Origin: Candidatus Gottesmanbacteria bacterium
GTDB lineage: Bacteria; Patescibacteriota; Microgenomatia; 2-02-FULL-39-11
Assembly: GCA_016186795.1 (NCBI GenBank)
Contig: JACPKY010000002.1
Coordinates: forward strand, 465,044 to 529,043
DNA length: 64,000 nt
Direction of reading: 5' to 3'
Position numbers and translations under genes: made by a program. Under the pieces are notes generated by a model. That model made no database searches, had not been told where the DNA came from, and saw only the letters and a list, made by a program, of their open reading frames with translations. Of the stretch, positions 33,917-49,890 are shown piece after piece (position 1 is the stretch's first letter; every line of letters begins with the position of its first letter).

Positions 33917-33918
33917 AC

Positions 33919-34437
33919 TTAGCTCTTTCGTGGAAGTTGTTGCAGCCAGTCATACCCAATAGTTGGATCATCATGGTCAATTCTTCCCTCTTCTTGGGTG
34001 CTATATACTCCGGAAGTCACGTAAAAAAGTTCCGAGGTCGGCGTCAATACTTTACACCCATGGGCAACACCCGGAGGAATCTTCAGAATAATATCCTCCC
34101 CATCTTCCCCAAGTACAAACTCATTGATCCTCAAATACGTTTTTGAGACTTTGCGCATATCACAAAGTGCCACCCAAAGCGACCCTTTCGCAACATACCA
34201 CCAGTCAGTTTGTGTTTTATGGATATGCCAGGCTTTAGTAACTCCCTCTTTCATAAAAGAGTGAGAAAGCTGTCCAAATCCTTCTTTGAAAAACTCGTCA
34301 GTTACTCGTATGAGTTCTTCAAAGAATCCTCGTTCGTCGTAATTACGAGTAAGGTTTTTTACCTTTACCCCCTCAATAAGGGTTTGAGAGGAAGGAGCAG
34401 GATATTTCACACCCTTCCAACCTCCTTTTTCGCCCAA
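33919..34437 (-). CDS. rmlC: dTDP-4-dehydrorhamnose 3,5-epimerase
   Basis: RmlC-type cupin: ...RNYDERGFFEELIRV...SHSFMKEGVTKAWHIHK...GVAHGCKVL. Confidence 0.8.
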   Translation of the reverse strand: MGEKGGWKGVKYPAPSSQTLIEGVKVKNLTRNYDERGFFEELIRVTDEFFKEGFGQLSHSFMKEGVTKAWHIHKTQTDWWYVAKGSLWVALCDMRKVSKTYLRINEFVLGEDGEDIILKIPPGVAHGCKVLTPTSELFYVTSGVYSTQEEGRIDHDDPTIGYDWLQQLPRKS

Positions 34438-35147
34438 TATTTATTGGCTTGGAATAATGTCTCAAATGTACCACAATCTGACCAAAATCCGGTGAGTTCA
34501 GTCCAGGAAAGGCTGACATCTTTGATATATTGGTTGTTCACATCAGAAATTTCCAGTTCATTTCTCCAAGACGGTTTACAAGACCTAATGTAGTCAAAAA
34601 CTTTTGCATCATACAGGTAAAGACCTGTTGCCACATAGTTACTTTTGGGAATTTTGGGCTTTTCTTCAATCGCTGCAATTTTTTTGGGATCTTTAGCATC
34701 AAAAACAACAACGCCAAACCGTTTCAACTGATGAGGATCATCTATTTTTTTAATAAAAAGGAGAGCTCCTTTTTGGAAACTCTTTACTGCACTTTTCAGG
34801 TCCATATCGGTGGTGTTGTCCCCAAGTATTACGGCAATATTGCCATTATCGGCAAAATCTTCAGAAAGGCTCAGTGCATCGGCAATTCCCCCGTCAGGTT
34901 TTTCCTGGTAAGCAAATTCAAGATGTTTGACCCCCAATTCTTTCCCATTTTTCAAAACACGGATGAAATGCCCGGCATGAGGTCCGCTTACAACGACGAG
35001 AATCTCTGTAATACCACTATTTACAAGTGTAGCTATGGGATAAAAAATCATGGGTTTATCATAGACAGGAAGAAGGTGTTTGTTGGTGGCGTAGGTAAGA
35101 GGATAGAGCCGGGTTCCAAGTCCTCCGGCAAGAATGACACCTTTCAT
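34407..35147 (-). CDS. rmlA: Glucose-1-phosphate thymidylyltransferase
   Basis: MKGVILAGGLGTRLYPLTYATNKHLLPVYDKPMIFYPIATL. Confidence 0.85.
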   Translation of the reverse strand: MKGVILAGGLGTRLYPLTYATNKHLLPVYDKPMIFYPIATLVNSGITEILVVVSGPHAGHFIRVLKNGKELGVKHLEFAYQEKPDGGIADALSLSEDFADNGNIAVILGDNTTDMDLKSAVKSFQKGALLFIKKIDDPHQLKRFGVVVFDAKDPKKIAAIEEKPKIPKSNYVATGLYLYDAKVFDYIRSCKPSWRNELEISDVNNQYIKDVSLSWTELTGFWSDCGTFETLFQANKYWAKKEVGRV

Positions 35148-35442: not shown

Positions 35443-36336
35443 TTATAAAATAACTCCAATACCAGCCGCACTCATAGCACCAATTATTGCGGCTAAGAAA
35501 ATAAAGTGTGCAAGACTGTGACTTACAAGACGCTGGGTACGGTGTCGCCACATGTAAATGCTATCGACAAAAAGGACAACAAGAAGAAATTCAGAAAGAA
35601 CGAGCGATGTCGTTTTTGCATTTATACCGAAGATTAAACTCTGTGATATGGGGGAAATCTCTTCTCTATCATCTAGTTCTCCCTCTATGCTTGGTAATTG
35701 ACTAATTTCAATGATTTCCTTCTCTGATGTGGTTGTGGGTTTATCTTGACTAGCAGTTTCCTTGGCAAGACGAGCCCCAAACTCCTGAACAACAAGCGTC
35801 GTATCTTGACCGTTTAGCCTTCCGTTGACCACCGCTACCCCAATTTCTTTATACTCTGGTTTCAAAAGATTTGCCCTATGGGTTGGAGATTTCATCCAGG
35901 CATCGACAACATCTTGCGAATAATCAAAATCTTTGGCGAGATTTTCCCCTGCATAGATATATTTATATCCAGTTGAAGTAATAAATACCCACGGAGTCTG
36001 ACCCGAAGGTGATATATGAGCCCAGTAATTATAGCTAAACATGTCAGAGGCTTTGTTGGTTGCAGCTGATGATAACTCCAAAGACTCAGAAAGCGGGGGG
36101 AGATTACTCTCCTGCCTTTTTTGATTTACCAACTCAATGATTTTTTGTGATGAAATATCTGTAGCAAACCCAAGGACATTTCGTTGGTAGTGATAGAGAA
36201 ATGTCGCACCAATCTGGAAGGCAAAAAGAAGAACAATATAGAAAAGGATCGAACTTGCATGAAGTGTTTTCGCACGGAAATTATTGGACTCGTGGGGATA
36301 GAAATAATGGTGGAAAATCCCTCTGATAGAACCCAT
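35443..36336 (-). CDS. CAP/SCP (PR-1-like, YkwD-type) domain protein with N- and C-terminal TM segments
   Basis: N-terminal TM, then a CAP-domain core ...LSSAATNKASDMFSYNYWAHISPSG...YIYAGENLAKDFDYSQDVVDAWMKSPTHRANLLKPEYKEIGVAV; C-terminal hydrophobic region. Confidence 0.7.
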   Translation of the reverse strand: MGSIRGIFHHYFYPHESNNFRAKTLHASSILFYIVLLFAFQIGATFLYHYQRNVLGFATDISSQKIIELVNQKRQESNLPPLSESLELSSAATNKASDMFSYNYWAHISPSGQTPWVFITSTGYKYIYAGENLAKDFDYSQDVVDAWMKSPTHRANLLKPEYKEIGVAVVNGRLNGQDTTLVVQEFGARLAKETASQDKPTTTSEKEIIEISQLPSIEGELDDREEISPISQSLIFGINAKTTSLVLSEFLLVVLFVDSIYMWRHRTQRLVSHSLAHFIFLAAIIGAMSAAGIGVIL

Positions 36337-36403
36337 ATTCCAATTGTGTCAAACAAGCGGGAGAAATTCAAGGAAAAGGAGAAATAATAACTTGACAGAC
36401 TTA

Positions 36404-38290
36404 TTAACAAACACCCGTGTTTGTATTACCTTGAGAGGGGACGCCACATGTCTTCCAGGATCCACCATCTGGTTCTCTCCCAATTGCTGTATCTTCTCCT
36501 GGATCAGAAAGGTATTGATGTTGATCGATTAGTGTCCCATCTCCTGCAAATAGAACGACAAAATCTCCACCATCATTAAGAAAACCTGTACCGAGAAGTT
36601 GAAAAGGGTAGAGAGGATTTGAAGTATTAAGAGATGTTAGTGGAATTTTATCACTACTCCCTGCATCGCTATCAAAATTGGTATCATCATCAATATAAAA
36701 TGAAGAAAGATCGATGCTACCCGGATTGTAAAACTCGACCCATTCCTGCGGAAATGTTGACCCAACATGGGCAACAAATTCATTGATAAGAACCTGAGAA
36801 CCTGTTGGAGACGGCGTGGGAGTCTCTGATGGGGTAGGAGTTGGGGTATCAATTGGAGTTGGAGTTTGGGTAGGGGTAGTTAATGGTGTTACCCCGGCAT
36901 CAACTGCTATTTCTCCATCGGAACGAACTGTATTGTAAATTTTTACTTCGTCGATAAAGCCGTTGAAGTTACGACCATCTCCTTTTTTTCCGATAACAAC
37001 TGGTTGTCCGGAAGAACTTGGTATTAATTGAGCTTCGGTATGCTGTAATAACCCATTTATATAAATTTTTGTTTGAGCTCCATCATTTGTAAATGCAATA
37101 TGGTACCAATTGCCTATCGTTAAAGGTAGAGATGTTGCGCATACTTGAGTATTTGCAAACATAAATACACTTCCGCTTGTGCCACATCGGCTCCCATCAT
37201 CTACCCCAAACGCCCATGAACTTCCAATGTTACTTTTTGCAATTGGATACCGAAAATCATCAAGTGAGTTTGGTTTTATCCATAATGCAACAGTTAAAGG
37301 AGCACTATCGGGCAGACTTGTAGAATCCAAAACATTTATAAAATCATCATTACCATCATTAATTATTGCTCCATTCACTTGGCCACTTCCTGTCCAACCT
37401 GATGAAACTGTTGGTGGATCACCATAGAAATTTAGTGCTCCATTATTACCATTCCCCGAGGAATCATTTGCTGTCGTTCCGGTTCCTTCATCCAAATTTA
37501 AATATAGGACCAATGGCCCTATTGGACCTGTTGTGGGACTTGGTGTTGGAATCGGGGTCTCTGTTGGAGTTGGAGTATCTGTGGGAGTAGGCGTTTCGGT
37601 AGGAGTAACTGTTGGAGTTTCGGTTGGTGTGGGAGTATCTGTTGGAGTCGGTGTTAATGTTTCTGTTGGTGTAAGAGTTGGGGTTGGAGTATCTGTCGGA
37701 ATCTCTGGAGGTGTCGGAGTGATGGTCTCGGTTGGAGTTGGAGTCTCTGTTGGGGTTTCTGTTGGAGTCAATGTCGGTGTCGGTGTTTCGGTGTGAAGAG
37801 GGGTAGAACTTGGTGTTGGCGTCACGGTCTCTGTTGGTGTTGGTGTTTCGGAAGGAGTAGGTGTTGGCGTATCACTCGGAGTGGGAGATGGAGTTTCTGT
37901 CGGTGTCGGCGTTTCTGTCGGAGTTGCCGTTGGTGTTTCGGTTGGTGTGGGAGTAATTGTTTCAGTTGGAGTGGGAGTTTCAGTTGCGGTAGGGGTTGGC
38001 GTTTCTGTTAAAGTGGGGGTTGGCGTTTCGGTGGACGTCGCAGTTGGAGTAATAGTAGGTGTTGGAGTTACTGTAGGCGTAGAGCCACCGAGCGGCTGCA
38101 ATGGGGCAAGTGTCGGAAGTGGTACAAGTGTAGGAAGAGGATTAAGTCGGGGAAATGGCAAAAGTCTTGATAAATTCGGTAGAGGAAGAAATGGAAACTG
38201 AAAAGCGTATGTTGTCGTTGGGGTAACAAAAAGTGTTGCTAATCCTAAAAAGCAACCTATAAGAAAAAGGCGAATATTGAATAATTTCAT
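36404..38290 (-). CDS. Secreted surface protein: signal peptide, long Thr-Pro-Glu repeat linker, LamG-like (concanavalin-A-like lectin) domain, second TP linker, lamin-tail domain (LTD)
   Basis: Signal peptide [22 protein letters not shown], then about 250 aa of TPTPTETP repeats. The LamG_3-like core is [22 protein letters not shown]...LWIKPNSL...[25 protein letters not shown]...[12 protein letters not shown]. The C-terminal LTD is [37 protein letters not shown]. The ORF track extends to 38392 (MHICTCLPP...), but that extension contains a complete intrinsic terminator hairpin. Confidence 0.7.
37500..38110 (-). repeat. Coding tandem repeat array (ACN-CCN-ACN-GAR units) encoding the TPTPTETP linker
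   Basis: Visible nucleotide periodicity (ggagt-/gttgg-/gtcgg-type units). Gives rise to spurious GVGV ORFs on the opposite strand (37533..37796, 37881..38201). Confidence 0.6.
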
Positions 38291-38305
38291 CTTTGTATTC
38301 CGAAA

Positions 38306-38331
38306 TAAAAAATCCACCGGTGACGGTGGAC
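38306..38331 (-). terminator. Intrinsic terminator (CCACCG-TCAC-CGGTGG + U6) inside the leader / N-terminal extension of the LamG-LTD gene
   Basis: Minus-sense GGTCCACCGTCACCGGTGGATTTTTTATTTCGG: a perfect 6-bp GC-rich stem with a tetraloop followed by a U-tract. Confidence 0.5.
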
Positions 38332-38394
38332 CTGCATCAATGGTAATTAAAAGATTCTTCGATAACGGAGGTAGGCAAGTGCATATATGCATTC

Positions 38395-38421
38395 ATTGAC
38401 CTCCGTGTGCGGTTGGTCAAT
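38395..38421 (-). promoter_or_regulatory. Conserved leader RNA stem-loop, copy A (lower stem ATTGACC/GGTCAAT, loop AACCGCACACGGA) embedding an SD-like GGAGG
   Basis: Minus-sense ATTGACCAACCGCACACGGAGGTCAAT. ACGGAGGT can alternatively pair with ACCTCCGT (38365-38372). Confidence 0.45.
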
Positions 38422-38437
38422 ACTTTAGATTAATTTC

Positions 38438-38465
38438 ATTCTACTTGGGGACTATCATCTGTCAA
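38438..38465 (-). promoter_or_regulatory. Sigma70-like promoter TTGACA-16-TAGAAT for the LamG-LTD leader
   Basis: Minus-sense CTAGTTGACAGATGATAGTCCCCAAGTAGAATG, located between the sortase stop and the leader motif. Confidence 0.35.
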
Positions 38466-38531
38466 CTAGGAGTATGTATACTAAAGTACGAAGAACTGGA
38501 TCAGAGGAAAATTGAATGAAACCCAAACGTA

Positions 38532-39194
38532 TCAGACCTTTCCGGCAGTAATAATCAGACGTTTTTTGTCTGCAAATCCAGAACATGTATAGAGGGTTAG
38601 AATTGATTCTTTGGTTGGAGCGATAACCTCAACTTGTGTGGGGAGCACTTCTTTAATATCCTTCACGAAATATCCATACCAGGAATCTTTCGTAAATACG
38701 TAAATCTTTTGCCCGATTTTTGCCTGTTTAAGAGGAAGGAATAATCCGGCACGAGCGTGAGCAAAAATGACTTGATTACCTATATCTTGCGGATAGGAAG
38801 AACCAAGTCCAAATCCAGCACTATCGGCAAATACCTCCCAGTATCCTTTTATAACTTTTGCTTCTCGAACTTGTACATCAATACTTAAATCGGGAATAAC
38901 AAGACGCGTCGGTGGACTTTTTGTAACTTTTTTCGAGGTATCAACGCGGAGTAAATTTTCATCTATTTTTACTGGCTCTTGTGCAAATGTGGTAACACTT
39001 TCTGCGCTTTCTGTTTTTTCTTCTTTTCGCTCATTATTTCCACCAGCTGGAGTTGAAAGTACCGATCCTACAATCAGCAAAAAAAACCCTCCGACTAAAA
39101 GGATCAGTCGCGTGCGACGCCTTTCGTCTTGAAGGATTTTTTTTACGCTCTTTGGATTTTTCCGAATTTTGATTTTGCGTAGAGAAGAAGACAT
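38532..39194 (-). CDS. Sortase (transpeptidase) with N-terminal membrane anchor
   Basis: N-terminal TM (LILLVGGFFLLIVGSVL), His motif VIFAHARAG, catalytic Cys in LTLYTCSGF (TLxTC), and a downstream Arg. Confidence 0.8.
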   Translation of the reverse strand: MSSSLRKIKIRKNPKSVKKILQDERRRTRLILLVGGFFLLIVGSVLSTPAGGNNERKEEKTESAESVTTFAQEPVKIDENLLRVDTSKKVTKSPPTRLVIPDLSIDVQVREAKVIKGYWEVFADSAGFGLGSSYPQDIGNQVIFAHARAGLFLPLKQAKIGQKIYVFTKDSWYGYFVKDIKEVLPTQVEVIAPTKESILTLYTCSGFADKKRLIITAGKV

Positions 39195-39637
39195 AACACT
39201 CCTGATAGGAGTATTATATCAGAAAGCCCCAAATCGAAACTTCCGGTTGCGGATAAACCTTTAACAATTGGTTGTGGCTCTCCTGGTTGTCCACCTGATT
39301 CACCCCCAATTCGAGGTGTCCATCCACAATATGGTCCTACGTATGATTTCCCGGCAGCACACGCATCTTCACCATCTCCTTCCCCTCCTCCACCATTTGA
39401 TGGCGGATTTGTTGGCGTCGGTCCCCCTATCCGCGGTGTTGGTGTTGGCTGGGTAGTTGTGGGCTGTGGCGTACTTGTTGGTTCTTCTGGTGGAGATGTC
39501 GGATGTTCGTCACTTGGTTGTGTTGGTCTTGTAGTTGGCCTCTCCCACCAGTCTGCATATACGCTTGTTGAGTTTGACATCACAATCCACAAAAGAATGA
39601 TTAATAAGCTTCCGAAAACAGCAATTTTTCTTTTCAC
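39143..39637 (-). CDS. Small secreted Pro/Thr-rich protein with C-terminal hydrophobic anchor and basic tail (candidate sortase substrate)
   Basis: GTG start with SD AGGAGGTGA 9 nt upstream. Signal peptide; PTTRPTQPSDEHPTSPPEEPTSTPQPTTTQPTPTP; C-terminus KGLSATGSFDLGLSDIILLSGVLCLLLYAKSKFGKIQRA. Confidence 0.5.
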   Translation of the reverse strand: MKRKIAVFGSLLIILLWIVMSNSTSVYADWWERPTTRPTQPSDEHPTSPPEEPTSTPQPTTTQPTPTPRIGGPTPTNPPSNGGGGEGDGEDACAAGKSYVGPYCGWTPRIGGESGGQPGEPQPIVKGLSATGSFDLGLSDIILLSGVLCLLLYAKSKFGKIQRA

Positions 39638-39659
39638 TTCTGACTATTCACCTCCTTTT

Positions 39660-41969
39660 CTATAAAATAACCTCCAATAATGCATGAACGTACTTTGAGA
39701 TATCATATTTCTTTCGGCGTCTGATGATAAAGAGAAAAAGAGCGACCGGCACAATCCAAAGCCAAGAGTTGGTAACACGAATTGAGGCTCCACCCAAAAG
39801 CATTGCCGCAATGCTACTTTGTGTTGCCTTGGCAAATGCTGGAGAAAGGAATATTCCACGCTTCACTTCTTTGATTTGATTGATTTGATTTTCTACCTGT
39901 TGCTGCTCTGGAACACCCTGAGAATAATATTGGCGCGTTGTGTAAGTCTTTTGTCTTGCAGTATTAACAGTATTTACTGCTTGGGTATAAGTCTCGGGAT
40001 AATAATAGTAATATATTTCATTTGTCTGAGATGTCTGATCTTGGTAGTATGAATCTGCATACTCATTGGATTCTCCATTGTAACTGTCAAAATTGTCGGC
40101 TGATCCAAGTGGTGGAATGGTCGGAAGTGGGGCAATAGTAGGAAGTTCCGCTACTCCCCCAGTTGCAGATGTAGTATTTCCTGATGCGTTTTGTCCAGGC
40201 GTTACGACATCACCAGCCCAGGATCCGAGAATATTTACTAAGATCGCAACAAACTTTTTGGCAACAACATTGGTATTTGCCATGTTAACGAGATTCAAAC
40301 CTACATTTGCATCGCCTGTTTCTATGACACCTGCTCCTGTGTTATAGGCAGCTTGGTTATTGCCGGTATCGGCAGTGGCTGTGACATTATTCGTTATCTT
40401 TGCGGTATTCTCGTTTGACAGCTGAGTATTTGTTGTCGTATTTTGAGAAGCAACGTTATCAGAAAAGGCCCCTGTTCCGGCATTGGTTGTCGTAAATGTC
40501 TGAAATCCGGCGCCTGTCGTTGTTTGAGCTATCGGAAGTGCATTGGAAGCGCTTGTTGCACCCCATGGGGAACCAAGAATATGACCAACCCACTTCCCTG
40601 CTTCATTGACAATAACCATCCATACAGTCTCTTCTTCCTGTACGGTATTTATATTGGCAATTGTTGAGTTACTCACAGCAACATCGGTATTTCCTGTTGC
40701 GACATACCCTCCACCGGTATTTACCGATGCAGTATTATTTCCACTATTTGCCGATGTATTTACTGCACTTACAATATCTGCATTGTTTGTGTTCTCAAAC
40801 GAAGCAGTCGTGTTGCTTGTATAATTTGCAGTGTTATTTGACATCGCTCCAGTATTACTATTCCCACTAAGTAGAGTTGATCCACCTGACCCACTACTGT
40901 CTCCTTGAGGAAGAATAATATTGCCGACATACTCACCAAAGATATTCACGACACCAAAAAGCCAGTTGGAGACATTGAGGTTGGTATTCGCAAGATTGAT
41001 GACGTTACCAATTGCACTTGCATCACCTGTTGAGACCACACCATTTCCAGTATTGAATGATGCACTGTTACTTCCTGTAATTGCTGCAAGGTTAATATCA
41101 TTGACAATTTCTGCATCATTTCCATTTGCTTCTTTCACCGTAAACTGGCTATCGGCAATAGCAGTATTATCAGATCCATAACCAGTCACGGCATTTTTGG
41201 ATACTGTCCCTGAAGCTTGGGAAAACCCTTGATTGATACTATTTCCGGGAAGATTGAAAACAATATCTCCTAAGTAGTTATCGTAGATATTAAATACAGA
41301 AAACGCGCCAACTCCTGTCATGGTGCTATTGAGCTTATTTAAAAGATTCAGTTTGGCTTGGGTATCGCCAGTAAAAACTTGCCCATCTAATGTATTGAGA
41401 TTTGCGTAGTTAAATCCAGTTGAGGAAATTTGGTCAATTTTATTTTGCATCTGGGCTAAATTTTGATTCATCACCTCAAGCTTCTGGTTCACTATTTCTT
41501 CAGCGTAGTTCGTCGACAGAGCCCCAGTGGCAATATTAGCTGGATCATTGATTTCTCCACTAGAATTCGTACTCGTACCACTTGCGTTACCCTCGGATGA
41601 GTATCCATTAGGATTACTCTGATTTGTCGGATCTTCTAAGCTTCCTCCAGTAGGCGTTATCCCTGAAAGGGAATCGATCTGATCTGAAGTTGGTAATGGA
41701 TCCCCACCTGAACTGGTCGGAAGTGGTGGAACGGTTGGGACATCCGCCGGAGGAGGCGGATTTGTCGGTGGAGGCGCAGCTGTCGGTAATGTGTAACTCG
41801 TATCAGGTGGCGGAGGAACTGTCGGTACTGAGGAGAGTGTATCTGGCATCGGAGGCGGAGGTGGAACTGTCGGTACCTCCTGGGCCAATACGGGTACAAC
41901 CGATAAAACTCTCAGAAAAATGAGAGTTACAATAAGACTTGTACTAATAAATTTTTTCAACCTATTCAT
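39660..41969 (-). CDS. Large secreted Asn/Thr/Ser/Gly-rich repeat protein (paralog family) with Pro-rich N-terminal region and C-terminal TM plus basic anchor
   Basis: Signal peptide MNRLKKFISTSLIVTLIFLRVLSVVPVLAQE, then PPPPPMPDTLSSVPTVPPPPD. Repeated modules include ADTGNNQAAYNTGAGVIETGDANVGLNLVNMANTNV, ANSGNNTASVNTGGGYVATGNTDVAVSNS and ITGSNSASFNTGNGVVSTGDASAIGNVINLANTNLNV. C-terminus WLWIVPVALFLFIIRRRKK. Confidence 0.7.
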   Translation of the reverse strand: MNRLKKFISTSLIVTLIFLRVLSVVPVLAQEVPTVPPPPPMPDTLSSVPTVPPPPDTSYTLPTAAPPPTNPPPPADVPTVPPLPTSSGGDPLPTSDQIDSLSGITPTGGSLEDPTNQSNPNGYSSEGNASGTSTNSSGEINDPANIATGALSTNYAEEIVNQKLEVMNQNLAQMQNKIDQISSTGFNYANLNTLDGQVFTGDTQAKLNLLNKLNSTMTGVGAFSVFNIYDNYLGDIVFNLPGNSINQGFSQASGTVSKNAVTGYGSDNTAIADSQFTVKEANGNDAEIVNDINLAAITGSNSASFNTGNGVVSTGDASAIGNVINLANTNLNVSNWLFGVVNIFGEYVGNIILPQGDSSGSGGSTLLSGNSNTGAMSNNTANYTSNTTASFENTNNADIVSAVNTSANSGNNTASVNTGGGYVATGNTDVAVSNSTIANINTVQEEETVWMVIVNEAGKWVGHILGSPWGATSASNALPIAQTTTGAGFQTFTTTNAGTGAFSDNVASQNTTTNTQLSNENTAKITNNVTATADTGNNQAAYNTGAGVIETGDANVGLNLVNMANTNVVAKKFVAILVNILGSWAGDVVTPGQNASGNTTSATGGVAELPTIAPLPTIPPLGSADNFDSYNGESNEYADSYYQDQTSQTNEIYYYYYPETYTQAVNTVNTARQKTYTTRQYYSQGVPEQQQVENQINQIKEVKRGIFLSPAFAKATQSSIAAMLLGGASIRVTNSWLWIVPVALFLFIIRRRKKYDISKYVHALLEVIL

Positions 41970-42010
41970 CTACTTTATCCATTTTGATTTCCTATAAATA
42001 AGTCTTTCTC

Positions 42011-42045
42011 GGTGGGGACCCAATTTCCTAGGATGGATCCCCACC
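42011..42045 (-). other. Stem-loop GGTGGGGA-N19-TCCCCACC immediately downstream of the 419-aa repeat-protein gene (possible weak terminator or RNA processing site)
   Basis: Perfect 8-bp GC-rich stem; no strong U-tract. Confidence 0.3.
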
Positions 42046-42068
42046 ATAAGAAAGGGATGGCTACTGTT

Positions 42069-43265
42069 TTACAGGGAGAGTGTATTCAGGACATCGTTAA
42101 GATGTGTCTGAACCGCTTCCATGAGTGATGCCCATCCTGCCATCACGCTACCACCACCGGTATTGTAGTCTCCGGCGTTATTCCCAGCATCAACAACACT
42201 ATTTACAGTATTGAAGACTCCGAGATACTCAGGTTCACACCCATCGGTCTCACTCCATGGTCTCCATGGATTTCGAATCCGATCAGCGTTGTGAGACTGG
42301 CACTTGTTATTCCAGTTATCTACAGTTACGTTTTTATTGTTATTCACGTACTGTGCATTATTGGAATACGGACCTGTTACACTACTTGAAGCATCATTGG
42401 CGAATCCGCCCATGGCTGTTGCAATCATAGTCGTGTTGATATTCCCTTCGGTATTGACACCAACTCCGGCTGTTGCATTTCCTGTTGTAATATCGCCTCC
42501 CAACGTGTTGTAGGATGCGCTATTATTCCCAGTTAATGCACGTGCGTTCACTCTGTTTTTGACTTGGAGGTCATTCACATTGTTCACGTACGCGTAGATG
42601 TCGTTGTTGATGACTGCCGCATTGTTAGAGAATGGTCCAGTTGTGCTATTGAATGCAGTGTTGTTCCCAGTACCACCTGCCCCAAGGTTAAGGTCTGTCA
42701 AACTGTCATTCACATGTGTCAGTACTCCAAGATTTAACCATGAATTTCCAGTTTGAACGGTTGCTGGACCGGTATTGTAGTCTGCACTATTATTCCCAGT
42801 ATCAGCTGTTGCATTCACACTATTCTTCACTGTGGCGGTATTACTGTTGTATACATCGACTCTCGTTCGATTGTTGATGTATGCAGCGTTATTGGAGTAA
42901 GGTCCGGTAATTTCGTTACCAGCGATGTTGTTTGAACCTCCAGATCCAATTGTCAGATTGGTCGTACTGATGTTTGCAACTGAAGACACGGTTGTGTTGT
43001 TGGTCGCATTCCCAGTGACGATTGAGCCTCCCAGCGTATTGTAGGAAGCACTGTTGTTCCCAGTGTTAGACGTAGAATTCACTCTATTGATGATTTGAGC
43101 ATCATTGACGTTATTGACCGTCACATTGCTAGTGTTGTTTACAGTGCAGGTGTTGTTTGAAAACGGTCCTGTGGTACTGTTTGTACAACTGTTTGCAGCA
43201 AATGCCGGTACTAAGGTTGCAGCGAGTAAAACTGCTGCCCCTGTTAACGTTGCAATTTTTTTCAT
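42069..43265 (-). CDS. Secreted Asn/Thr-rich protein with four tandem ~90-aa repeats (paralog family)
   Basis: SD AAAGGAGGTG 9 nt before ATG. Signal peptide MKKIATLTGAAVLLAATLVPAFA. Four modules share TGP[FY]SNN...[VI]NN...VN...TGNNSA[SD]YNT.GG.I.TGNAT. Confidence 0.7.
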   Translation of the reverse strand: MKKIATLTGAAVLLAATLVPAFAANSCTNSTTGPFSNNTCTVNNTSNVTVNNVNDAQIINRVNSTSNTGNNSASYNTLGGSIVTGNATNNTTVSSVANISTTNLTIGSGGSNNIAGNEITGPYSNNAAYINNRTRVDVYNSNTATVKNSVNATADTGNNSADYNTGPATVQTGNSWLNLGVLTHVNDSLTDLNLGAGGTGNNTAFNSTTGPFSNNAAVINNDIYAYVNNVNDLQVKNRVNARALTGNNSASYNTLGGDITTGNATAGVGVNTEGNINTTMIATAMGGFANDASSSVTGPYSNNAQYVNNNKNVTVDNWNNKCQSHNADRIRNPWRPWSETDGCEPEYLGVFNTVNSVVDAGNNAGDYNTGGGSVMAGWASLMEAVQTHLNDVLNTLSL

Positions 43266-43365
43266 TAAGTTTTCACCTCCTTTCTTTTGTGTGATAACAA
43301 AACTGTCATTCTGCCTAGGAAAGAACACACAGCTTTGTCCAATCCAGTAAGTCAGTAATCACTCC

Positions 43366-43416
43366 AAAAAAATGAGGTAAGTCTCCTCCCGATAATATCG
43401 GGAGAATCCTTACCTC
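43366..43416 (-). terminator. Intrinsic terminator in the 5' leader of the repeat-protein operon (GAGGTAAG...CTTACCTC stem with nested TCCCGATATTATCGGGA hairpin, + U7)
   Basis: Minus-sense GGAGGTAAGGATTCTCCCGATATTATCGGGAGGAGACTTACCTCATTTTTTT. Shares GGTAA with the upstream motif stem, so the two structures are mutually exclusive. Confidence 0.55.
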
Positions 43417-43432
43417 CGTGTGCGGTCGGTAA
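43410..43432 (-). promoter_or_regulatory. Conserved leader RNA stem-loop, copy B (stem TTACC/GGTAA, loop GACCGCACACGGA); candidate antiterminator
   Basis: Minus-sense TTACCGACCGCACACGGAGGTAA. The loop sequence is conserved with copies A and C, while the lower stem differs but remains complementary. Confidence 0.5.
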
Positions 43433-43455
43433 TTAAAATTATTTTTCCAGCGCGC

Positions 43456-43620
43456 CTAAATTTGGTGGCTGGTTTTTCTGATATTTCTCTCTGTAATCTG
43501 TGTCACTTTGTTGTTTTGCACGTAAATCTCTACGGATCCCCAGCCGCGAATATTTTTGAGTGCTTGCTTTATTTCCTCAAGTAAATCCCTAGTAATTTTT
43601 TTGGTTGAGTAGTCAACCAT
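43456..43620 (-). CDS. Small protein, DUF2292/YezD family (54 aa), embedded in the 5' leader upstream of the conserved motif; absent from the ORF track (<60 aa)
   Basis: Translation MVDYSTKKITRDLLEEIKQALKNIRGWGSVEIYVQNNKVTQITERNIRKTSHQI*. The core GSVEIyVQNgKVTQIt.R matches the YezD-like family as I recall it. Confidence 0.5.
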   Translation of the reverse strand: MVDYSTKKITRDLLEEIKQALKNIRGWGSVEIYVQNNKVTQITERNIRKTSHQI

Positions 43621-43701
43621 TGGGCATTGTAGGCAGTTGCGGGCAGACTGTGAATGATGAGCAGATTTTGGGGCAGAAGTACGGGCTTTTTTCTAAGTCG
43701 C

Positions 43702-43731
43702 ACTATAAAAGATATACTCTTACCTTGTCAA
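43702..43731 (-). promoter_or_regulatory. Promoter TTGACAAGG-N15-TATAGT driving the leader of the repeat-protein operon
   Basis: Minus-sense CTCTTGACAAGGTAAGAGTATATCTTTTATAGTG; near-identical architecture to the promoter at 49891..49920. Confidence 0.4.
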
Positions 43732-44342
43732 GAGGGCAATTTTATTGGTATTTCCTCTTTCTTCCCGTCAAGTTCTCCAACATAGAGCTTAAATTCCTTC
43801 GCATCTTGGGGGATTACAAATCCGATTCGATCAGGTTTCGTCGAGATTGCGGCAACATACACCAGATTGTTATGCAAATCTGGCGCAAACTTGTTCTCTT
43901 CATCACCGTTAACAGTCAGGCGAACGAGATCTCCTGGCAAAATATTTAATGGAATTGTGGCATCGTTTTTCAGGTCAAGTTGCAGAATTAGAAAGGTTTT
44001 GTTGTTTTTGGCAACGAACGTCTGGTCTTTCACAAGGACTTGATTTGTTTTCTCAACTGTTGTTGCGGTAACTTTTATTTTCTGTATCACTGGTTTTCCC
44101 TGGTTATTGAGAGCGGTAAACTCAAAGCTTCTATTCACCGGTTGCGAAACAGATTTAGCCGATGCCGTCTGACCAACCCTTGAAGAAATAAATCGTGCAC
44201 CTCCGATACCAATGACAAAAAGAACTATAAGCGCAATAACTATCCGTTTTTTGGAGGATAAAATGGATCGTAGAAAAAGTCCACCGGTTTTCGCAAGTTG
44301 CGAAGCTTTTTCTAGACCCAGAATATTTTTTTCTTTTGCCAT
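43728..44342 (-). CDS. Membrane-anchored protein with beta-rich extracytoplasmic domain (DUF4352-like)
   Basis: N-terminal TM (IVIALIVLFVIGIGGA) followed by ...TFLILQLDLKNDATIPLNILPGDLVRLTVNGDEENKF...; resembles DUF4352 proteins. Confidence 0.45.
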   Translation of the reverse strand: MAKEKNILGLEKASQLAKTGGLFLRSILSSKKRIVIALIVLFVIGIGGARFISSRVGQTASAKSVSQPVNRSFEFTALNNQGKPVIQKIKVTATTVEKTNQVLVKDQTFVAKNNKTFLILQLDLKNDATIPLNILPGDLVRLTVNGDEENKFAPDLHNNLVYVAAISTKPDRIGFVIPQDAKEFKLYVGELDGKKEEIPIKLPS

Positions 44343-44343
44343 A

Positions 44344-44372
44344 AGAAAAGCCCAAAGCAGACAGCTTTGGGC
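44344..44372 (-). terminator. Hairpin GCCCAAAGC-TGTCTG-CTTTGGGC + UUUUCUU (terminator / 5'UTR structure) directly upstream of the 43728..44342 start
   Basis: Minus-sense GCCCAAAGCTGTCTGCTTTGGGCTTTTCTTATG, preceded by a TTGACA-15-TATAGT promoter-like sequence (44387..44413). Confidence 0.4.
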
Positions 44373-44481
44373 AGAAGTAAACAGATACTATACTGGTCAA
44401 ATCACATTGTCAAGATATCGAAATATATCAAACTATCTCTTTTCCAGTACATTGATCAATTTTTCTTATTACCACGTACTG

Positions 44482-45663
44482 TCATGCGATGAATAATCCC
44501 ACTACAAACAAGGCAAAGTAGAGAGAAAAGAAGAGAACTGATGCTCCCAGATACATGATTTTATAGGTAGGCTGAATGCGAAACGAGACGACAGAAAGAA
44601 ATAGCGGAAAAAGAATAAGTGCATACCGAGAGAAAGAGAAAAATGGAACCATACTGTATTTCGTACTAGTAACGGTAAAGACGAGATAGAGAAGGAGAGA
44701 AAGAATCCAGATATCAGTCCGGAGAAGCCTTTTTGACAGGACAACAAGAATTCCTCCTGATGTTGCCAAAAACAAATTCACATGATTTGGAAGAGTATAC
44801 CCGAGAGAAAAAAGGTAGTTCCACTCGGCAGTAATAAGATCCCAAGGCAAGGTGTATTTTATCCCCCAAAAGTTTTGCGCTTTAATGGAAGAAAAGGGGA
44901 CACCAGTCATCGAATCTTGGAAAAAGGTAGAAAAGATATATGCTAGTGGAATAAGAAAAAGAGAAATAAACCGTGGGAGAAAATTTCGAAGGTTTACTGA
45001 GCTCTTATAGTACGTATACAAAAGAGGAAGAAAAACAACGATCGCAAATGGCTTTGTTGAAGCGGCCAAAGCTGCAACGAACGATGCCCAAAAATACTTC
45101 TTCTTCCTCAACAAAAGAAACAATCCAATCAGAAGAACTAAGAGAAGCGACTCCGCATAGGGCGCAAGAAGGAAAAAACTTGTGGGAAAAAACGCATACA
45201 TCGTAACGAGCGGAAGAGATGTTCTTTCTCCTTTCTCTTCTTTAGCAAATAGATAAAGAAGGAAAAATACCAAAAAGACTAGAAACGTATTTAAAACAAA
45301 AGCTCCTTGCTCAAAAGTAAATCCAGTAAGAAGAAACACCCGTAGGACAAGTGGATACAAAGGGAAAAATGCTGCGCTTTGCGGACTGTCTTGATATAGA
45401 AAAATTGCTATATTTTTATACCAGAGAGCATCAAAACGCATGAGAGGTTGCATAATAATATACAAAGGGGATGATTTTTCTGGAATACGCTCTACAAAGT
45501 CCATACCACTTACAAAATACGGAATAGGACTAACAAGTGAAAGTAGTATCCAGCCGATTAAAAAGGTCGATAATCTGAGCCAAACGGTAAAGAGAATTGC
45601 CGTCACAAAAGCCCGTTTTGTCACCGGTGAAATTTTCATGAGGCAAACTATACACCGAAACAA
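44482..45663 (-). CDS. GT-C membrane mannosyltransferase, PIG-V/Mannosyl_trans2-like
   Basis: Motif RFDALWYKNIA in an extracytoplasmic loop (D..WY..IA signature); about 10 TM segments. Confidence 0.5.
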   Translation of the reverse strand: MFRCIVCLMKISPVTKRAFVTAILFTVWLRLSTFLIGWILLSLVSPIPYFVSGMDFVERIPEKSSPLYIIMQPLMRFDALWYKNIAIFLYQDSPQSAAFFPLYPLVLRVFLLTGFTFEQGAFVLNTFLVFLVFFLLYLFAKEEKGERTSLPLVTMYAFFPTSFFLLAPYAESLLLVLLIGLFLLLRKKKYFWASFVAALAASTKPFAIVVFLPLLYTYYKSSVNLRNFLPRFISLFLIPLAYIFSTFFQDSMTGVPFSSIKAQNFWGIKYTLPWDLITAEWNYLFSLGYTLPNHVNLFLATSGGILVVLSKRLLRTDIWILSLLLYLVFTVTSTKYSMVPFFSFSRYALILFPLFLSVVSFRIQPTYKIMYLGASVLFFSLYFALFVVGLFIA

Positions 45664-45727
45664 GAAATAGAGTCAAGGAGGAACATCTTGTTGATTCCCT
45701 ACCTCTACGCTATCATCCACTCATACT

Positions 45728-47365
45728 ATGAAGAAATGGACTATTCTCGTTTCTATTCTTATCATATCGGCTCTATTGCTTTTCAGTACTGTTGCCAATC
45801 TTTCCTATCCCCTTTTATGGAACGATGAAGCGCTTGGAATCATGCTAACGAAGTCTACACTTCATGGTGGCTATCCGCGCGTTTATTTTCAAGGTAACAT
45901 TCTCAATCAATTCCATAGAGATCTCCTGAAACCACTCGTAGATCAAGAAACTGGTGCCTCAAAAGAAAATGGTTGGCTGGCGTATTACATTGGAGCACCG
46001 TTTGTAGCGCTTTCTGAAAGAATCGATAATATATATCTTCAAACAGGAATAGTTAGGCTCCCATTTGCTATCATTGGTTTTGCAAGCATATTTATTTTTG
46101 GAGCTATTGCCCGACTTTTTTTCTCACAAGGGGGCCAAAAACGGAATAGTTTTTTCCTCGTTCTTTTTCTCTCTCTTATTGATATACCACTCCTTCTCCA
46201 TATCCGGGAAGCCAGATATTACTCAGTTCTCCTTTTTATTGTCGGATTCTACTGGTATGTGCTTCTAAGGTACGTACTCTTCAATACTATTTCCTACCGT
46301 TTATTCCTTTTTCTCATGCCGGTTGTTTGTCTTGCCATTTTCCTAACCTATCCCCCGGCAGTGTTCCCATCTCTAGGCATACTTTTTATTGCATCTGGTA
46401 TTTTCCAGAGACGCATCCGTAAACCGACACTCAAGTCTCTCTTGCCATTCATGGCAGCAATAGTTGTAACATCTCCGGCTTTTTTGTTTTTTGACATCTT
46501 CCACCTTGCCGAATTGACTGCCAAAATATACCATGTCACACCGCTTATGGTTTACAAAAATATTGTCACTATCACTTCACGAATTTATGCCGATACTCTC
46601 CTTATGTTTGTCGGTTTAGGGATTGGGGTTGCTATTCTTTTGGTTAAGACGAATAGAGCAAGTACTTCTCTTCGGTTTTTCCTCCTCTTCTCATTTCTGG
46701 TTGCTATATTTGGTGTCGGAACTCTCGCAACACTTTCCCGGATACCTTTCGTTTTCACCAGATATTATATTTATCTGTATCCACTTGTCACAATCAGTGC
46801 AGTTATCGCTATAATAACGATCAGAGAACTTCCTTTGCCGAAAAAATCTCTCATCTGGAAAAAAAGTACCCTTTTTTTCCTTCTTTGCATCATGGTCTTT
46901 AACCTCACTATCCATAACGGAGGAGAGAAAGCCCGTCGCATTGCAGGTTACATCTTTCAACTTACCCATCGCTATGAAGGTCCACTGGACGTTATTATTC
47001 CCTATATCCTCGCCCACTTTTCAACGCCACAAAAACTTATTATCGCCACAAACTACGAAGAGTTCTCTTACATGTACTACCTTCGCAGCCGAGTGACAGT
47101 AGGATTCATGGGAATCAATTTGGAGGAAGATCTGAAGACAACTGCGGATATTATCGTATACCGGCCAGGATGGGGGACAGACCCAAATATTTTTCGATAT
47201 TTCCTCTCAAAAGATACTTACGATGAGGTGACGTTCCCGATTTTCAACTACCCACTAAACAATATTCCTGAGTTTTATTTTGGCTATCCGCACCAATTCC
47301 GAACGCTTTATGCGAAAAAAGAGGAAGAAAAGGTAAGAATTTTTGTCCGCAGGGGGAGTATTTAA
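45728..47365 (+). CDS. Polytopic membrane protein, probable GT-C glycosyltransferase
   Basis: 545 aa with 12+ TM segments, an early acidic loop (LLWNDEALGIMLTKSTLHGGYPRVYF), and a C-terminal soluble domain. Confidence 0.45.
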   Translation: MKKWTILVSILIISALLLFSTVANLSYPLLWNDEALGIMLTKSTLHGGYPRVYFQGNILNQFHRDLLKPLVDQETGASKENGWLAYYIGAPFVALSERIDNIYLQTGIVRLPFAIIGFASIFIFGAIARLFFSQGGQKRNSFFLVLFLSLIDIPLLLHIREARYYSVLLFIVGFYWYVLLRYVLFNTISYRLFLFLMPVVCLAIFLTYPPAVFPSLGILFIASGIFQRRIRKPTLKSLLPFMAAIVVTSPAFLFFDIFHLAELTAKIYHVTPLMVYKNIVTITSRIYADTLLMFVGLGIGVAILLVKTNRASTSLRFFLLFSFLVAIFGVGTLATLSRIPFVFTRYYIYLYPLVTISAVIAIITIRELPLPKKSLIWKKSTLFFLLCIMVFNLTIHNGGEKARRIAGYIFQLTHRYEGPLDVIIPYILAHFSTPQKLIIATNYEEFSYMYYLRSRVTVGFMGINLEEDLKTTADIIVYRPGWGTDPNIFRYFLSKDTYDEVTFPIFNYPLNNIPEFYFGYPHQFRTLYAKKEEEKVRIFVRRGSI

Positions 47366-47368
47366 TAT

Positions 47369-48922
47369 TTAATTTACGATATTTCGAACGTCATAAAGAA
47401 GAATCCCGCTATTGGATGCTACAGTCGGAAAGTATGAGAAGGGATTTTCCAATGGAAGGCGCTCCAATTTGCGAGTACTCATTTCTTCCAAACCATAATA
47501 GACAAAGTCGATAGTGTTATTCCTTATAAATTCCAGCTGTCTCTCTTTATCCATTTTCGAGTAAAATGCCTTCGCAAGGGTTTCCTTCTCTAAACTATTC
47601 GGCGTTTGGAATTTGTGCCCGAAATAGACTCGATTATTGGAGTGGGCAGGAATATAGTTCCCTATCCGATATAAAGAAAGTATCGAACTACCTTGAGGTA
47701 ACCTCTCTATCTTTGACAACATATCACCTTCACTTTCACTTAGGAAGAAAAACGAGTTGTTTTTCTCTATTTTTATCAATTTCTGAAATACATAGAAACG
47801 AGGTAAGAGTGAGAAAAGGGTAACAAAGGTTACGGCAATAAGAAGATATCTCCGATTAGGAATTAGATCGGGAAACATAAGAAAGGCAAGTGTCACAGCC
47901 CATATGAAAACCCCTTTCATGAAATACAAATGGAATCCGAATGGGGAAAGTGCGAAAAAAAGTTGACTCAGGAAAAAAATTTTTACAAGACTCATTTTGA
48001 GACTATTTTTTCCAAAAACAAGCCCAATAAATAAAGGAATGGACAATAAACCAAATCCAGAAACAAGCGATAACGAATCAACGTTAAAAAGCTTCTGATT
48101 TATAAGACCAGAAAATCCTGGATTATCTAAAAGAGCTGAAAGAGCAGAAAGATAGTAGATTCCAAAGAAAAGTACTATAGCAATTGGATACAAAACCGTT
48201 ATTTTTATCTTTTTGATTACATATATCCAAAGACTCACAATAAGTCCTATGAGAAGATAAACAACTGCAAAAGGAGGGTGAAGCAGTATACTTATGCAGC
48301 TGAAAACCCCCGCCCAATACAGGCTGGAACGGCTAAATGTTTGAAAAAACTTATGTAAGAATACAAATGTTAAAAGAAGACATACAGTACTTAATGCATC
48401 ATGTCCTCGTTCTAAAGCATTAACCAGTGTAAATCCGGCAATCTTTAGATCTGCTGAAAAACTAAGTAATGATAAGAAACCAAATCCTCCCCCAAGAACC
48501 ATAACAACAAAAGCAGAAAGACGGATAATCTGGTCGGAAAATAGTTCCTTTGCCACCATATAGCATGCAACGATAAGCACAATCCCAGTAACAATCGAAG
48601 CAATATGGAACAGAATAAATGGATCAAGATTGAATAATCTGTTTATGACACCAAGAAATGTGTAGTATTGATAAATATAAACTGGTCCATGAGGAATTGT
48701 TGCATAGGTATTAACCAATCCCATTCCATAAAGTTGGCCGTACCGCATATATGACACTTGGAAATTGGTATCCCACGCGTCGAACCATGAAGTTTGTTTT
48801 GGATACCAATATCCTTCCGGAGTATTGAACCAGTGGTAGAGGGTTGGAAATTTAGCAAAGAAAATGGCAAGGAAGATCACTCCTGCCACAAACATTGCTT
48901 CTCGTGTAAAAAGGCGCTTCAT
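47369..48922 (-). CDS. Polytopic membrane protein, probable GT-C glycosyltransferase
   Basis: 517 aa with multiple TM segments and a C-terminal soluble domain. Convergent with the previous gene across only a 3-nt gap. Confidence 0.45.
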   Translation of the reverse strand: MKRLFTREAMFVAGVIFLAIFFAKFPTLYHWFNTPEGYWYPKQTSWFDAWDTNFQVSYMRYGQLYGMGLVNTYATIPHGPVYIYQYYTFLGVINRLFNLDPFILFHIASIVTGIVLIVACYMVAKELFSDQIIRLSAFVVMVLGGGFGFLSLLSFSADLKIAGFTLVNALERGHDALSTVCLLLTFVFLHKFFQTFSRSSLYWAGVFSCISILLHPPFAVVYLLIGLIVSLWIYVIKKIKITVLYPIAIVLFFGIYYLSALSALLDNPGFSGLINQKLFNVDSLSLVSGFGLLSIPLFIGLVFGKNSLKMSLVKIFFLSQLFFALSPFGFHLYFMKGVFIWAVTLAFLMFPDLIPNRRYLLIAVTFVTLFSLLPRFYVFQKLIKIEKNNSFFFLSESEGDMLSKIERLPQGSSILSLYRIGNYIPAHSNNRVYFGHKFQTPNSLEKETLAKAFYSKMDKERQLEFIRNNTIDFVYYGLEEMSTRKLERLPLENPFSYFPTVASNSGILLYDVRNIVN

Positions 48923-49044
48923 TATCTTTTGTCCTGGCCGGATTCTATATCAAGCGCCTTGGTGTTTGCAATACGTTCCCCCAAATACCATTGAACTCCC
49001 CTTCTAGAAAGGAGAGTTCGAAATGGCAGAAAATACTTCGTGGT

Positions 49045-49635: not shown

Positions 49636-49697
49636 TTTTTCACCTCCTTTCCCTTCGGCTACCCTCAGGGCAAGCCGGGCAGAGTATTTTGCTGCAT

Positions 49698-49735
49698 AAA
49701 AAACACTCTCTCCCGACTTAGTCGGGATTGAGTGT
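49698..49735 (-). terminator. Second terminator-like hairpin in leader C (CACTC-A-ATCCCGAC-TAA-GTCGGGA-GAGAGTG + U6) containing the TCCCGAY-N3-RTCGGGA palindrome
   Basis: Minus-sense ACACTCAATCCCGACTAAGTCGGGAGAGAGTGTTTTTTATG. Confidence 0.4.
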
Positions 49736-49831
49736 GGTTTGAGAGATGGGCAGACTACAATACATATTAGGCAGTAATCAAATTAAGATGAAAAATGATA
49801 CACCGGGCAGGTGTACATATTTTCCTTCGAT

Positions 49832-49860
49832 AAAAAAAGCAATCCTATCCTTTGGATTGC
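49832..49860 (-). terminator. Intrinsic terminator (GCAATCC-AAAGGATA-GGATTGC + U7) in leader C
   Basis: Minus-sense GGAGGCAATCCAAAGGATAGGATTGCTTTTTTTATCG. Shares GCAA with the 3' strand of the motif stem. Confidence 0.55.
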
Positions 49861-49880
49861 CTCCGTTTGCGGTGAGCAAA
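49861..49880 (-). promoter_or_regulatory. Conserved leader RNA stem-loop, copy C (stem TTGCTC/GAG(G)CAA, loop ACCGCAAACG)
   Basis: Minus-sense TTTGCTCACCGCAAACGGAGGCAA. The apical CCG-CAAA-CGG corresponds to CCG-CACA-CGG in copies A and B. Confidence 0.5.
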
Positions 49881-49890
49881 CTCTATATCC

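Follow-up and report, generated by a model that had tools for sequence, protein, structure and literature searches.

The Candidate Phyla Radiation (CPR, or Patescibacteria) makes up a large share of bacterial diversity, and, type IV pili excepted, little is known of the proteins that form its envelope and appendages. In this work we have analysed a window of DNA (the whole stretch, 64 kb) from Candidatus Gottesmanbacteria, which belongs to the Microgenomates within the CPR. The window contains a cluster of genes, all on the minus strand, that encodes three secreted repeat proteins (A, B, and C), a candidate sortase substrate (D), and a sortase. The closest described systems are curli (CsgA/CsgB) and Fap, the Streptomyces chaplins, the RTX or beta-roll proteins (RsaA and the MpAFP adhesin), and the LPXTG sorting signals with the housekeeping sortases of Gram-positive bacteria.

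The locus shares with curli and Fap the secreted, imperfect repeats rich in Asn, Gly, Ala, Ser, and Thr with about 22 residues per rung, the predicted uncapped beta-solenoid, and the combination of a cell-bound paralogue with a free major paralogue. It differs from curli in that the A family has no sequence homology to it, four distinct rungs form an 88-aa supermodule, and export would be by Sec from a host that is presumably monoderm, which is an assumption. The anchored paralogue B is also an integral membrane protein, and a sortase with its substrate belongs to the cluster. No match to csgB/E/F/G-type accessory families was found among the neighbouring genes scanned (35443-52903). The chaplins, which comprise the short ChpD-H and the long, sortase-anchored ChpA-C, likewise combine free and anchored paralogues that carry the same module, and a sortase is likewise involved. 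The sorting motif has a small residue at position 2 in both cases (LAxTG in chaplins, LSxT[SG] here). However, the two are unrelated in sequence and fold, the chaplin domains being hydrophobic and about 40 aa long, and the sorting signal here sits on the separate, module-free D, whereas in some relatives it sits on the module protein.

One module of the predicted model superimposes on beta-rolls (2.0-2.7 Å over 67-87 residues), and the module resembles RTX proteins in its turns rich in Gly, Asn, and Asp and in its acidic, extracellular character. It differs from them in that Pfam gave no match to HemolysinCabind (PF00353) or the RTX nonapeptide GGxGxDxUx, the rungs have about 22 residues and not 18, and A, B, and C carry cleavable N-terminal Sec signal peptides and not a C-terminal signal for type I secretion. 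The right-handed beta-helix of SufD/SufB is a fold-class match only, at about 10% identity, and SufBD, a scaffold for Fe-S assembly, is found in the cytoplasm and has helical domains on its flanks. D resembles LPXTG proteins in its signal peptide, pentapeptide, hydrophobic segment, and basic tail, and the sortase has the His, TLxTC, and Arg of the Gram-positive enzymes. The differences are the pentapeptide of D, LSxT[S>G>A], and the sortase scores, which are far below all NCBIfam class cutoffs. Systems with this class of fold, with anchoring by a sortase, and with a division into free and anchored paralogues are already known.

The five ORFs (open reading frames) that an earlier note on this DNA had placed here are present at those coordinates on the minus strand. 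They are listed below with their modules.

49045-49635, minus strand: C (C196), secreted two-module paralogue of 196 aa with a signal peptide ending in TVPAFA
49321-49563 and 49048-49320, minus strand: modules of C, with a CxC motif between them
42069-43265, minus strand: A (A398), free secreted four-module protein of 398 aa with a strong Shine-Dalgarno sequence and no anchor
42930-43193, 42663-42929, 42399-42662, and 42072-42398, minus strand: modules of A
39660-41969, minus strand: B (B769), membrane-anchored paralogue of 769 aa
40152-41549, minus strand: four modules of B, each with an extra hydrophobic W.G..I..P hairpin
39143-39637, minus strand: D (D164), sortase substrate candidate of 164 aa
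38532-39194, minus strand: membrane-anchored sortase, whose ORF overlaps the end of D

HYW55_03620 and HYW55_03615 are 100% identical to A and B, respectively. A scan of genome contigs with one peptide pattern gave 11 loci and under-samples the taxonomy. Among the related loci (numbered with L), L012 duplicates L001, L007 is cut off after A, and the D of L002 has diverged beyond the reach of BLAST, so that its alignment was made by hand.

One module of about 88 aa is common to A (four copies), B (four copies), and C (two copies). In composition-adjusted BLASTP, A matched B at 5e-18 with four module-to-module registers and C at 3e-6. The ten modules of the window aligned with the invariant columns TG..S, N, G.N, NT, G, and N, and a profile built from them picked up individual modules of distant proteins (1e-8 to 1e-22). 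On these comparisons, the repeat module is real and goes beyond what composition alone would give. The earlier note had proposed three genes of one paralogous secreted repeat family with a biased composition, and both points stood. The composition of A is 19% N, 13% T, 10% A, and 9.5% G, and the mature forms of A, B, C, and D are all acidic (pI 4.2-4.9).

The earlier note had described A as a 419-aa member, which corresponds to an ORF read from an upstream GTG. Translation really starts at the ATG at 43265 and yields 398 aa. GGAGGTG precedes this codon by 8 nt, and each of the 40 aligned homologues begins with MKK. Related signal peptides of the ...LTGA...VPAFA type had been proposed for all three proteins. 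Those of A and C are of this type, with an AxA type I cleavage site, and that of B differs. A link to type IV pilins was suggested by a prepilin peptidase gene beside the C-like gene of L002, and it was rejected on account of the AxA type I signal peptides of A and C. B has, in order, a signal peptide, a Pro-rich region (29 Pro within residues 30-140), the four modules, a Tyr/Gln-rich linker, a transmembrane (TM) helix (aa 734-751), and an RRRKK tail, so the Pro-rich N-terminal region and the C-terminal anchor noted before are both present. The extra hairpin in each B module is a hydrophobic stretch of about 25 aa with the pattern W.G..I..P.

The orthologues of A are 45-82% identical over their full length, and their invariant residues are mostly N, G, and T. 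This pattern fits packing constraints and would not suggest diversifying host binding. The most conserved element of A is a non-beta loop, TG.N.A..NTG.G, followed by TG[ND]A, and acidic relatives have NTGDGS..TGDA at this place. Binding of Ca2+ by this conserved Gly/Asn/Asp loop is a speculation from the sequence. The motif TH[VL]ND is conserved at the ends of modules 2 and 4 of A. The number of modules is fixed at four in the orthologues of both A and B. The Cys pairs C27/C41 and C322/C344 are conserved in A and are missing from the most divergent orthologues. In the C family, a CxC motif (CDC, CGC, or CPC) is conserved between the two modules (residues ~108-114 of C196, window 49300-49330), and it is also found in the C-like genes of L001 and L002.

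The earlier note had recognised no Pfam domain in these proteins, and the searches agree with it. A, C, and D have no Pfam or NCBIfam match, and the only Pfam match of B is at chance level (DUF5858, E 0.15, far below the cutoff). The 40 homologues of A, when scanned singly against Pfam, gave nothing recurrent. Neither A nor the profile of its family found any match among the PDB sequences. The earlier note had named an assignment of the modules to a known repeat family as an outcome that would count against it, and no hidden Markov model in Pfam or NCBIfam gave one. It knew of no description of the family, and none was found in the searchable literature or in Pfam, NCBIfam, or PDB sequences.

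The orthologues of A form at least 187 clusters at 90% identity, and those that are named belong to Gottesmanbacteria, Curtissbacteria, or "Patescibacteria group". The orthologues of B extend further into Microgenomates than those of A. The module itself is spread more widely. The profile of the ten window modules was searched against 1.84 billion representatives (50% clustering) and matched 3,192 of them at E <= 1e-3 and 1,793 at E <= 1e-10. The matched proteins have 3-10 modules and lengths of 275-1183 aa. The ten top matches have no Pfam domain above cutoff, and one of them is from a Parcubacteria group bacterium, so the idea of a lineage-specific family was not borne out. The module is absent from Pfam, NCBIfam, and PDB, yet it occurs in more than 3,000 protein clusters, and its fixed gene cluster provides a defined target.

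Free and anchored forms are also found in the wider family. Free forms account for 87 of 129 representatives (median 561 aa), most of them with a signal peptide by a simple hydrophobicity test. The other 42 have a C-terminal TM anchor (median 716 aa), and nearly all of these have basic residues after it. A few anchored members have an LPXTG-like motif ahead of the TM segment, of which LPATG is the clearest and LPEAG and LPLSG are looser. Such a pairing of the two forms holds generally across the wider family. In the distant locus L015, a free six-module protein is directly followed by an anchored six-module protein. The Parcubacteria locus L014 has the order CAP, S8 peptidase, four-module free protein, one-module protein with a Pro/Thr stalk, and nine-module protein. 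The one-module protein (7187-7858 of L014, 223 aa) consists of one module, the Pro/Thr stalk, LPAAG, a hydrophobic segment, and RRRNR. The motif LPEAG is found in the family member P0268, and together with the LPAAG of L014 it raises LPxAG as a possible CPR sorting motif.

The fold of A was predicted by AlphaFold2 as a monomer from a 40-sequence alignment, which gave five models. The best model has a predicted local distance difference test score (pLDDT) of 81.7 and a predicted template modelling score (pTM) of 0.70. It is all-beta over residues 25-397 of 398 with an 88-residue periodicity, and it has no terminal helices or caps. Conserved Asn residues lie at offsets 0, 23, 47, and 69 of each 88-aa module, with the next at +88, and form an Asn ladder. 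The spacing of about 22 residues implies four rungs per module. A, B, and C are predicted to fold as beta-solenoids, which is what the earlier note had guessed. Foldseek of the A model against PDB gave nothing below E 0.1 and no close solved relative. CsgA (8c50) and FapC are among the structural neighbours, without significance. Pfam gave no match to Curlin_rpt (PF07012) for A, B, C, or the 40 homologues of A.

D and the sortase form the second part of the cluster, and both had been foreseen as a protein with an LSATG-like signal followed by a sortase. D has, in order, a signal peptide, a DWWxRP tip, a Pro/Thr stalk, a Cys loop (CAAGKSYVGPYCGW), LSATG, a hydrophobic segment, and a basic tail. 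Its signal peptide starts from a GTG preceded by a Shine-Dalgarno sequence (MKRKIAVFGSLLIILLWIVMSNSTSVYA|DWW) and is kept in orthologues. Conservation was counted over 66 homologue clusters, of which 53 have the DWWxR tip and 37 have the Cys loop C.xG[KQ]SY.G..CGW. A strict sorting-signal pattern fits 58 of the 66, and among these the signal is GLSxT followed by S (79%), G, or A, with L at 100%, S at 98%, and T at 100%. Seven of the other eight show GLSxT[S/E] by eye, including LSDTE, and one is truncated. The motif is followed by SDIxLLxGVLCLLLY and then [KR]SK. The divergent D of L002 has LPNTS in place of LSxT[S/G/A]. The pentapeptide is a non-canonical variant of the LPXTG type with Ser for Pro, and D is the only ORF in the window with such a sorting-signal C-terminus.

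The sortase matches Pfam PF04203 at 69.3 bits against a cutoff of 26.6 (E 3.4e-19), and it has H146, TLYTC204, R212, and an N-terminal TM anchor. It scores below every NCBIfam class cutoff; the best is class E (NF033747) at 46.6 bits against 160, which is barely above class D. D is thus a candidate for a dedicated, module-free substrate with a non-canonical motif, as judged from sequence. As the sorting signal sits on the module-free D, the A, B, and C of this genome would depend on the sortase only indirectly. No description of an LSxT[S/G] sorting motif was found in the literature searched, and the signal in D predicts a new sortase specificity.

The expression signals of A, B, and C are not alike. 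A and C share the ribosome-binding site AAAGGAGGTGAAAA, and B has no Shine-Dalgarno sequence. Two hairpins flank A.

43362-43434, minus strand: leader/terminator element between the DUF2292 gene and A, with the motif ACCGCACACGGAGG (~43413-43426), a hairpin of -31.8 kcal/mol, and a U7 tract
41998-42054, minus strand: G+C-rich A-B intergenic hairpin of -30.7 kcal/mol

The upstream hairpin has a z-score of -7.5. The downstream hairpin has a z-score of -3.8, no clear U-run, and a loop with the palindrome CCUAGG. A hairpin of -23.2 kcal/mol is found downstream of C. Strong hairpins with some compensatory changes are present at both A-flanking positions in the related loci. The A-B hairpin is strong in 11 of 11 related loci, and its core GGUGG(G/A)GAUCC...CCUAG is kept in nine of them. 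Its role could be that of a 3' stabiliser of the mRNA, of a processing site, or of a partial terminator. Together, the Shine-Dalgarno and hairpin signals fit a level of A far above those of B, D, and the sortase. A mini-ORF of six codons (ATGGATAAAGTAGATGAATAG) with its own AGGAAA overlaps the start codon of B (41969-41995, minus strand), and translational coupling is possible there.

We tentatively prefer the reading that free A and C stack onto membrane-anchored B to give a surface fibre or coat that is tethered to the wall through the sortase-processed D; this reading falls short of being probable. In such a system, A and C would be exported by Sec, their AxA signal peptides would be cleaved, and they would fold outside the cell as Asn-ladder beta-solenoids with uncapped first and last rungs. 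B would be held in the membrane by its C-terminal TM helix on a linker of about 130 aa and would act as base or template, on which the free subunits would dock by rung-on-rung (edge-strand) stacking. A would be produced in large excess over B. The sortase would cut D at LSxT|[SG] and link it to peptidoglycan, and the free DWWxRP tip and Cys loop of D would tie the polymer, or B, to the wall. The model is supported by the absent caps, the free and anchored paralogues, the stoichiometry signals, the invariance of N, G, and T, and the relatives with a sorting signal on the module protein itself. Polymerisation, templating by B, and tethering by D are all inferred. If true, the model would name proteins for Microgenomates surface structures and would provide a monoderm, Sec-dependent counterpart to curli and chaplin assemblies.

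Several points weigh against this reading. A was modelled as a monomer only. The five models of A spread widely (pLDDT from 81.7 down to 31.4), and the module junctions dip to about 67, so the continuous stacking of all four modules is not secure. The model of B is poor, with a pLDDT of 59 overall and low-confidence linkers between modules. Because Foldseek finds nothing significant, the likeness to amyloid subunits is only at the level of fold class, and hhalign of the A family against E. coli CsgA (with its sequence entered by hand) gave a probability of 0.6% and no homology. D has no module, and its link to A and B is one of synteny alone. In the Parcubacteria locus L014, there is no sortase within 8 kb, and the 1183-aa member has no TM anchor.

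Two other readings also fit part of the evidence, and both are unlikely. In the first, A is the subunit of a two-dimensional S-layer, possibly Ca2+-dependent as in Caulobacter RsaA, with B as a membrane stalk and D as a wall tether. A is its own strongly signalled expression unit between two hairpins and is acidic with a Sec signal, as is typical of S-layer genes, and in acidic relatives the conserved Gly/Asn/Asp turns (NTG.G...TG[DN]A) read NTGDGS..TGDA. Cryo-electron microscopy of ultra-small groundwater cells by Luef et al. in 2015 reportedly showed a surface layer as well. However, Pfam and NCBIfam detect neither SLH nor CWB2 nor any other wall-binding domain in A, B, or C, and Pfam finds no RTX nonapeptide. 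A is also small for an S-layer protein and unusually conserved in sequence for one, and the data do not tell a lattice from a fibre.

In the second, the proteins are non-polymerising adhesins or spacer rods, with B as an anchored stalk and A and C as soluble or loosely bound lectin-like partners, which would serve the attachment of an episymbiont to its host or to a substrate; this too we consider unlikely. CPR bacteria are thought to be episymbionts, and the cluster neighbours include surface proteins of the LamG/LTD (Laminin_G_3/lamin-tail-domain), CAP, and S8 types. Cultivated Patescibacteria are described as obligate episymbionts in PMC11623550. Adhesin tips usually diversify, yet A is conserved along its whole length and shows neither a separate tip nor a domain for ligand binding. 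The orthologues of both A and B keep to four modules, unlike many adhesins, in which the number varies, and anchorless free forms are the majority of the wider family.

A right-handed beta-helix of the pectate-lyase or tailspike type that binds or cleaves glycans, either its own wall polymers or a host polysaccharide, is very improbable. Asn ladders at a spacing of about 22 residues are a hallmark of pectate-lyase-type helices, such a ladder is present in the modules of A, TH[VL]ND is kept at the ends of modules 2 and 4, and a glycosylation locus adjoins the cluster. However, the polygalacturonase and lyase matches of Foldseek are insignificant (E 0.14-4, TM-score ~0.05), and the Pfam models Beta_helix (PF13229), NosD, and Pec_lyase have no match. 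The tandem modules are near-identical, very few charged residues are conserved, and there are no irregular loops that would form a groove. The binding of ice or minerals by flat Thr/Asn-rich solenoid faces, as in antifreeze, ice-nucleation, or biomineral-interaction proteins, is scarcely credible, as there are no regular TxT or TxN arrays, the relatives of the module proteins are rich in Asp/Glu rather than Thr, and the anchoring machinery and the membrane-bound paralogue would be left unexplained.

The genes around these five ORFs are listed below.

49954-51495 and 44482-48922: four large multi-pass membrane proteins (393, 545, 517, and 513 aa), none with a Pfam family
43728-44342, minus strand: single-pass TM protein of 204 aa with a weak DUF4352-like ectodomain, a conserved cluster member
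43456-43620, minus strand: DUF2292/YezD-like protein of 54 aa, directly upstream of A, with no signal peptide
36404-38392, minus strand: secreted Laminin_G_3 and lamin-tail-domain (LTD) protein with a long Pro/Thr repeat, variable but recurrent after the sortase
25369-35147: glycosylation locus with the dTDP-rhamnose pathway (RmlA/C/B/D), UDP-glucose dehydrogenase, a GT2 glycosyltransferase fused to GtrA, and PMT_2

The order on the minus strand is C, three multi-pass membrane genes, the single-pass TM/DUF4352-like gene, DUF2292, A, B, D, sortase, Laminin_G_3/LTD, a CAP-domain gene, and the sugar-nucleotide/glycosyltransferase locus. This order is kept in 11 related loci, L002 included, besides a twelfth (L007) that ends after A, and it reads S8 peptidase, 513-aa membrane protein, C-like, zero to three multi-TM genes, TM/DUF4352-like, DUF2292, A, B, D, sortase, variable LamG/LTD, CAP, and RmlA. 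The earlier listing of the cluster had omitted the DUF2292 gene and the TM protein gene, both of which are conserved members. The TM protein matches DUF4352 below cutoff (Pfam E 0.0069), and its orthologues are 45-60% identical and lie at the same position in 13 of 13 loci. The 54-aa protein matches DUF2292 (PF10055) at 32 bits against a cutoff of 22 (E 9.2e-8). It is the best conserved cluster member, with 59-89% identity in 13 of 13 loci and more than 70% in all but one. It is basic (pI 9.8), and its match to the OscA equivalog is below cutoff. It has no solved structure.

The multi-TM genes between C and A vary in number by genome (zero to three) and have no Pfam match and no PDB relative. 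One scored below threshold against a family annotated as "cell surface glycopolymer formation". The Laminin_G_3/LTD protein has a Thr-Pro repeat of about 250 aa. Its listed ATG is probably wrong, and the true start would be near 38290, 34 codons downstream at a signal-peptide-like stretch and after a leader element. Two loci titled "uncultured Gammaproteobacteria bacterium", L010 (CAZFNL010000011.1) and L013 (CAYIFB010000008.1), carry a complete cluster of the Gottesmanbacteria type and are probably mislabelled bins.

An adjacent glycosylation locus had been pointed out in the earlier note, with possible glycosylation of the repeat proteins, and the locus itself was found. It also holds two further epimerases/dehydratases and another GT2, its PMT_2 is of the GT-C type, and it adjoins the cluster here and recurrently in the related loci. 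A has 22 N-X-S/T sequons against 16.4 +/- 3.3 in shuffles, which is not a clear enrichment, and only five of them are conserved. N-glycosylation was dropped as a supported claim because this test is borderline and few sequons are conserved. Most conserved Asn residues of A look structural, at ladder positions. Modification, particularly O-linked modification of the Pro/Thr stalks, is possible and unsupported.

The motif ACCGCA[AC]ACGGAGG (14-15 nt) has three occurrences on the minus strand of the window against 0.03 expected. One lies in the element between DUF2292 and A that is given above, and the two others are listed below together with a promoter-like site.

49920-49891, minus strand: promoter-like site ahead of the leader element of C
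49798-49881, minus strand: leader-like element 5' of C, with the motif ACCGCAAACGGAGG (~49860-49873), a hairpin, and a U-run
38338-38421, minus strand: element upstream of the LamG/LTD gene, with the third motif copy (~38400-38413) and a hairpin

The motif occurs at the same places in the related loci (L001-L013), and the shared motif ties the distant gene C to A. A covarying hairpin lies 3' of each copy, and six of its ten predicted pairs have compensatory changes. A U-run follows the hairpin directly at A and C, and it follows a second hairpin at LamG/LTD. The five bases 5' of the motif (TTACC, TTGCT, or TTGACC) could pair with the 5' half of the hairpin (GGTAA, AGCAA, or GGTCAA), to which they are complementary. 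The alternative helix would enclose a conserved 13-nt loop with the sequence GACCGCAMACGGA. In this helix, 90.4% of the alignment cells pair, a value reached by none of 500 shuffles, and slid controls gave 13-72%. Few of the compensatory events are independent. A search of Rfam over 38-50 kb at E <= 1 gave no credible match (one chance-level miRNA, E 0.38). The leader may be a terminator/antiterminator that defines a small surface-protein regulon, and the shared motif gives a starting point for the study of how genes are regulated in an uncultivated lineage. A binding of the leader RNA by the basic DUF2292 protein is pure speculation.

No earlier account of the sequence family, the cluster, the LSxT[SG] signal, or the leader motif came up in the resources searched. 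The most extended reading joins all of these. The module would define a hitherto unrecognised class of beta-solenoid polymers that self-assemble at the cell surface in several CPR lineages. Such a polymer, with free subunits stacked on membrane- or sortase-anchored paralogues and a new LSxT[SG] motif, would perhaps form the fibre or surface layer of these ultra-small cells. The genes of A, C, and the post-sortase protein would be co-regulated by a new terminator/antiterminator leader with DUF2292 as its RNA-binding regulator. Taken as a whole, this is improbable.

S8 peptidase, CAP-domain, and LTD genes also flank module genes in the distant loci L014 (3878-11552) and L016 (1966-14364). A Peptidase_M73 gene (TasA/camelysin family) is found nearby in L016.

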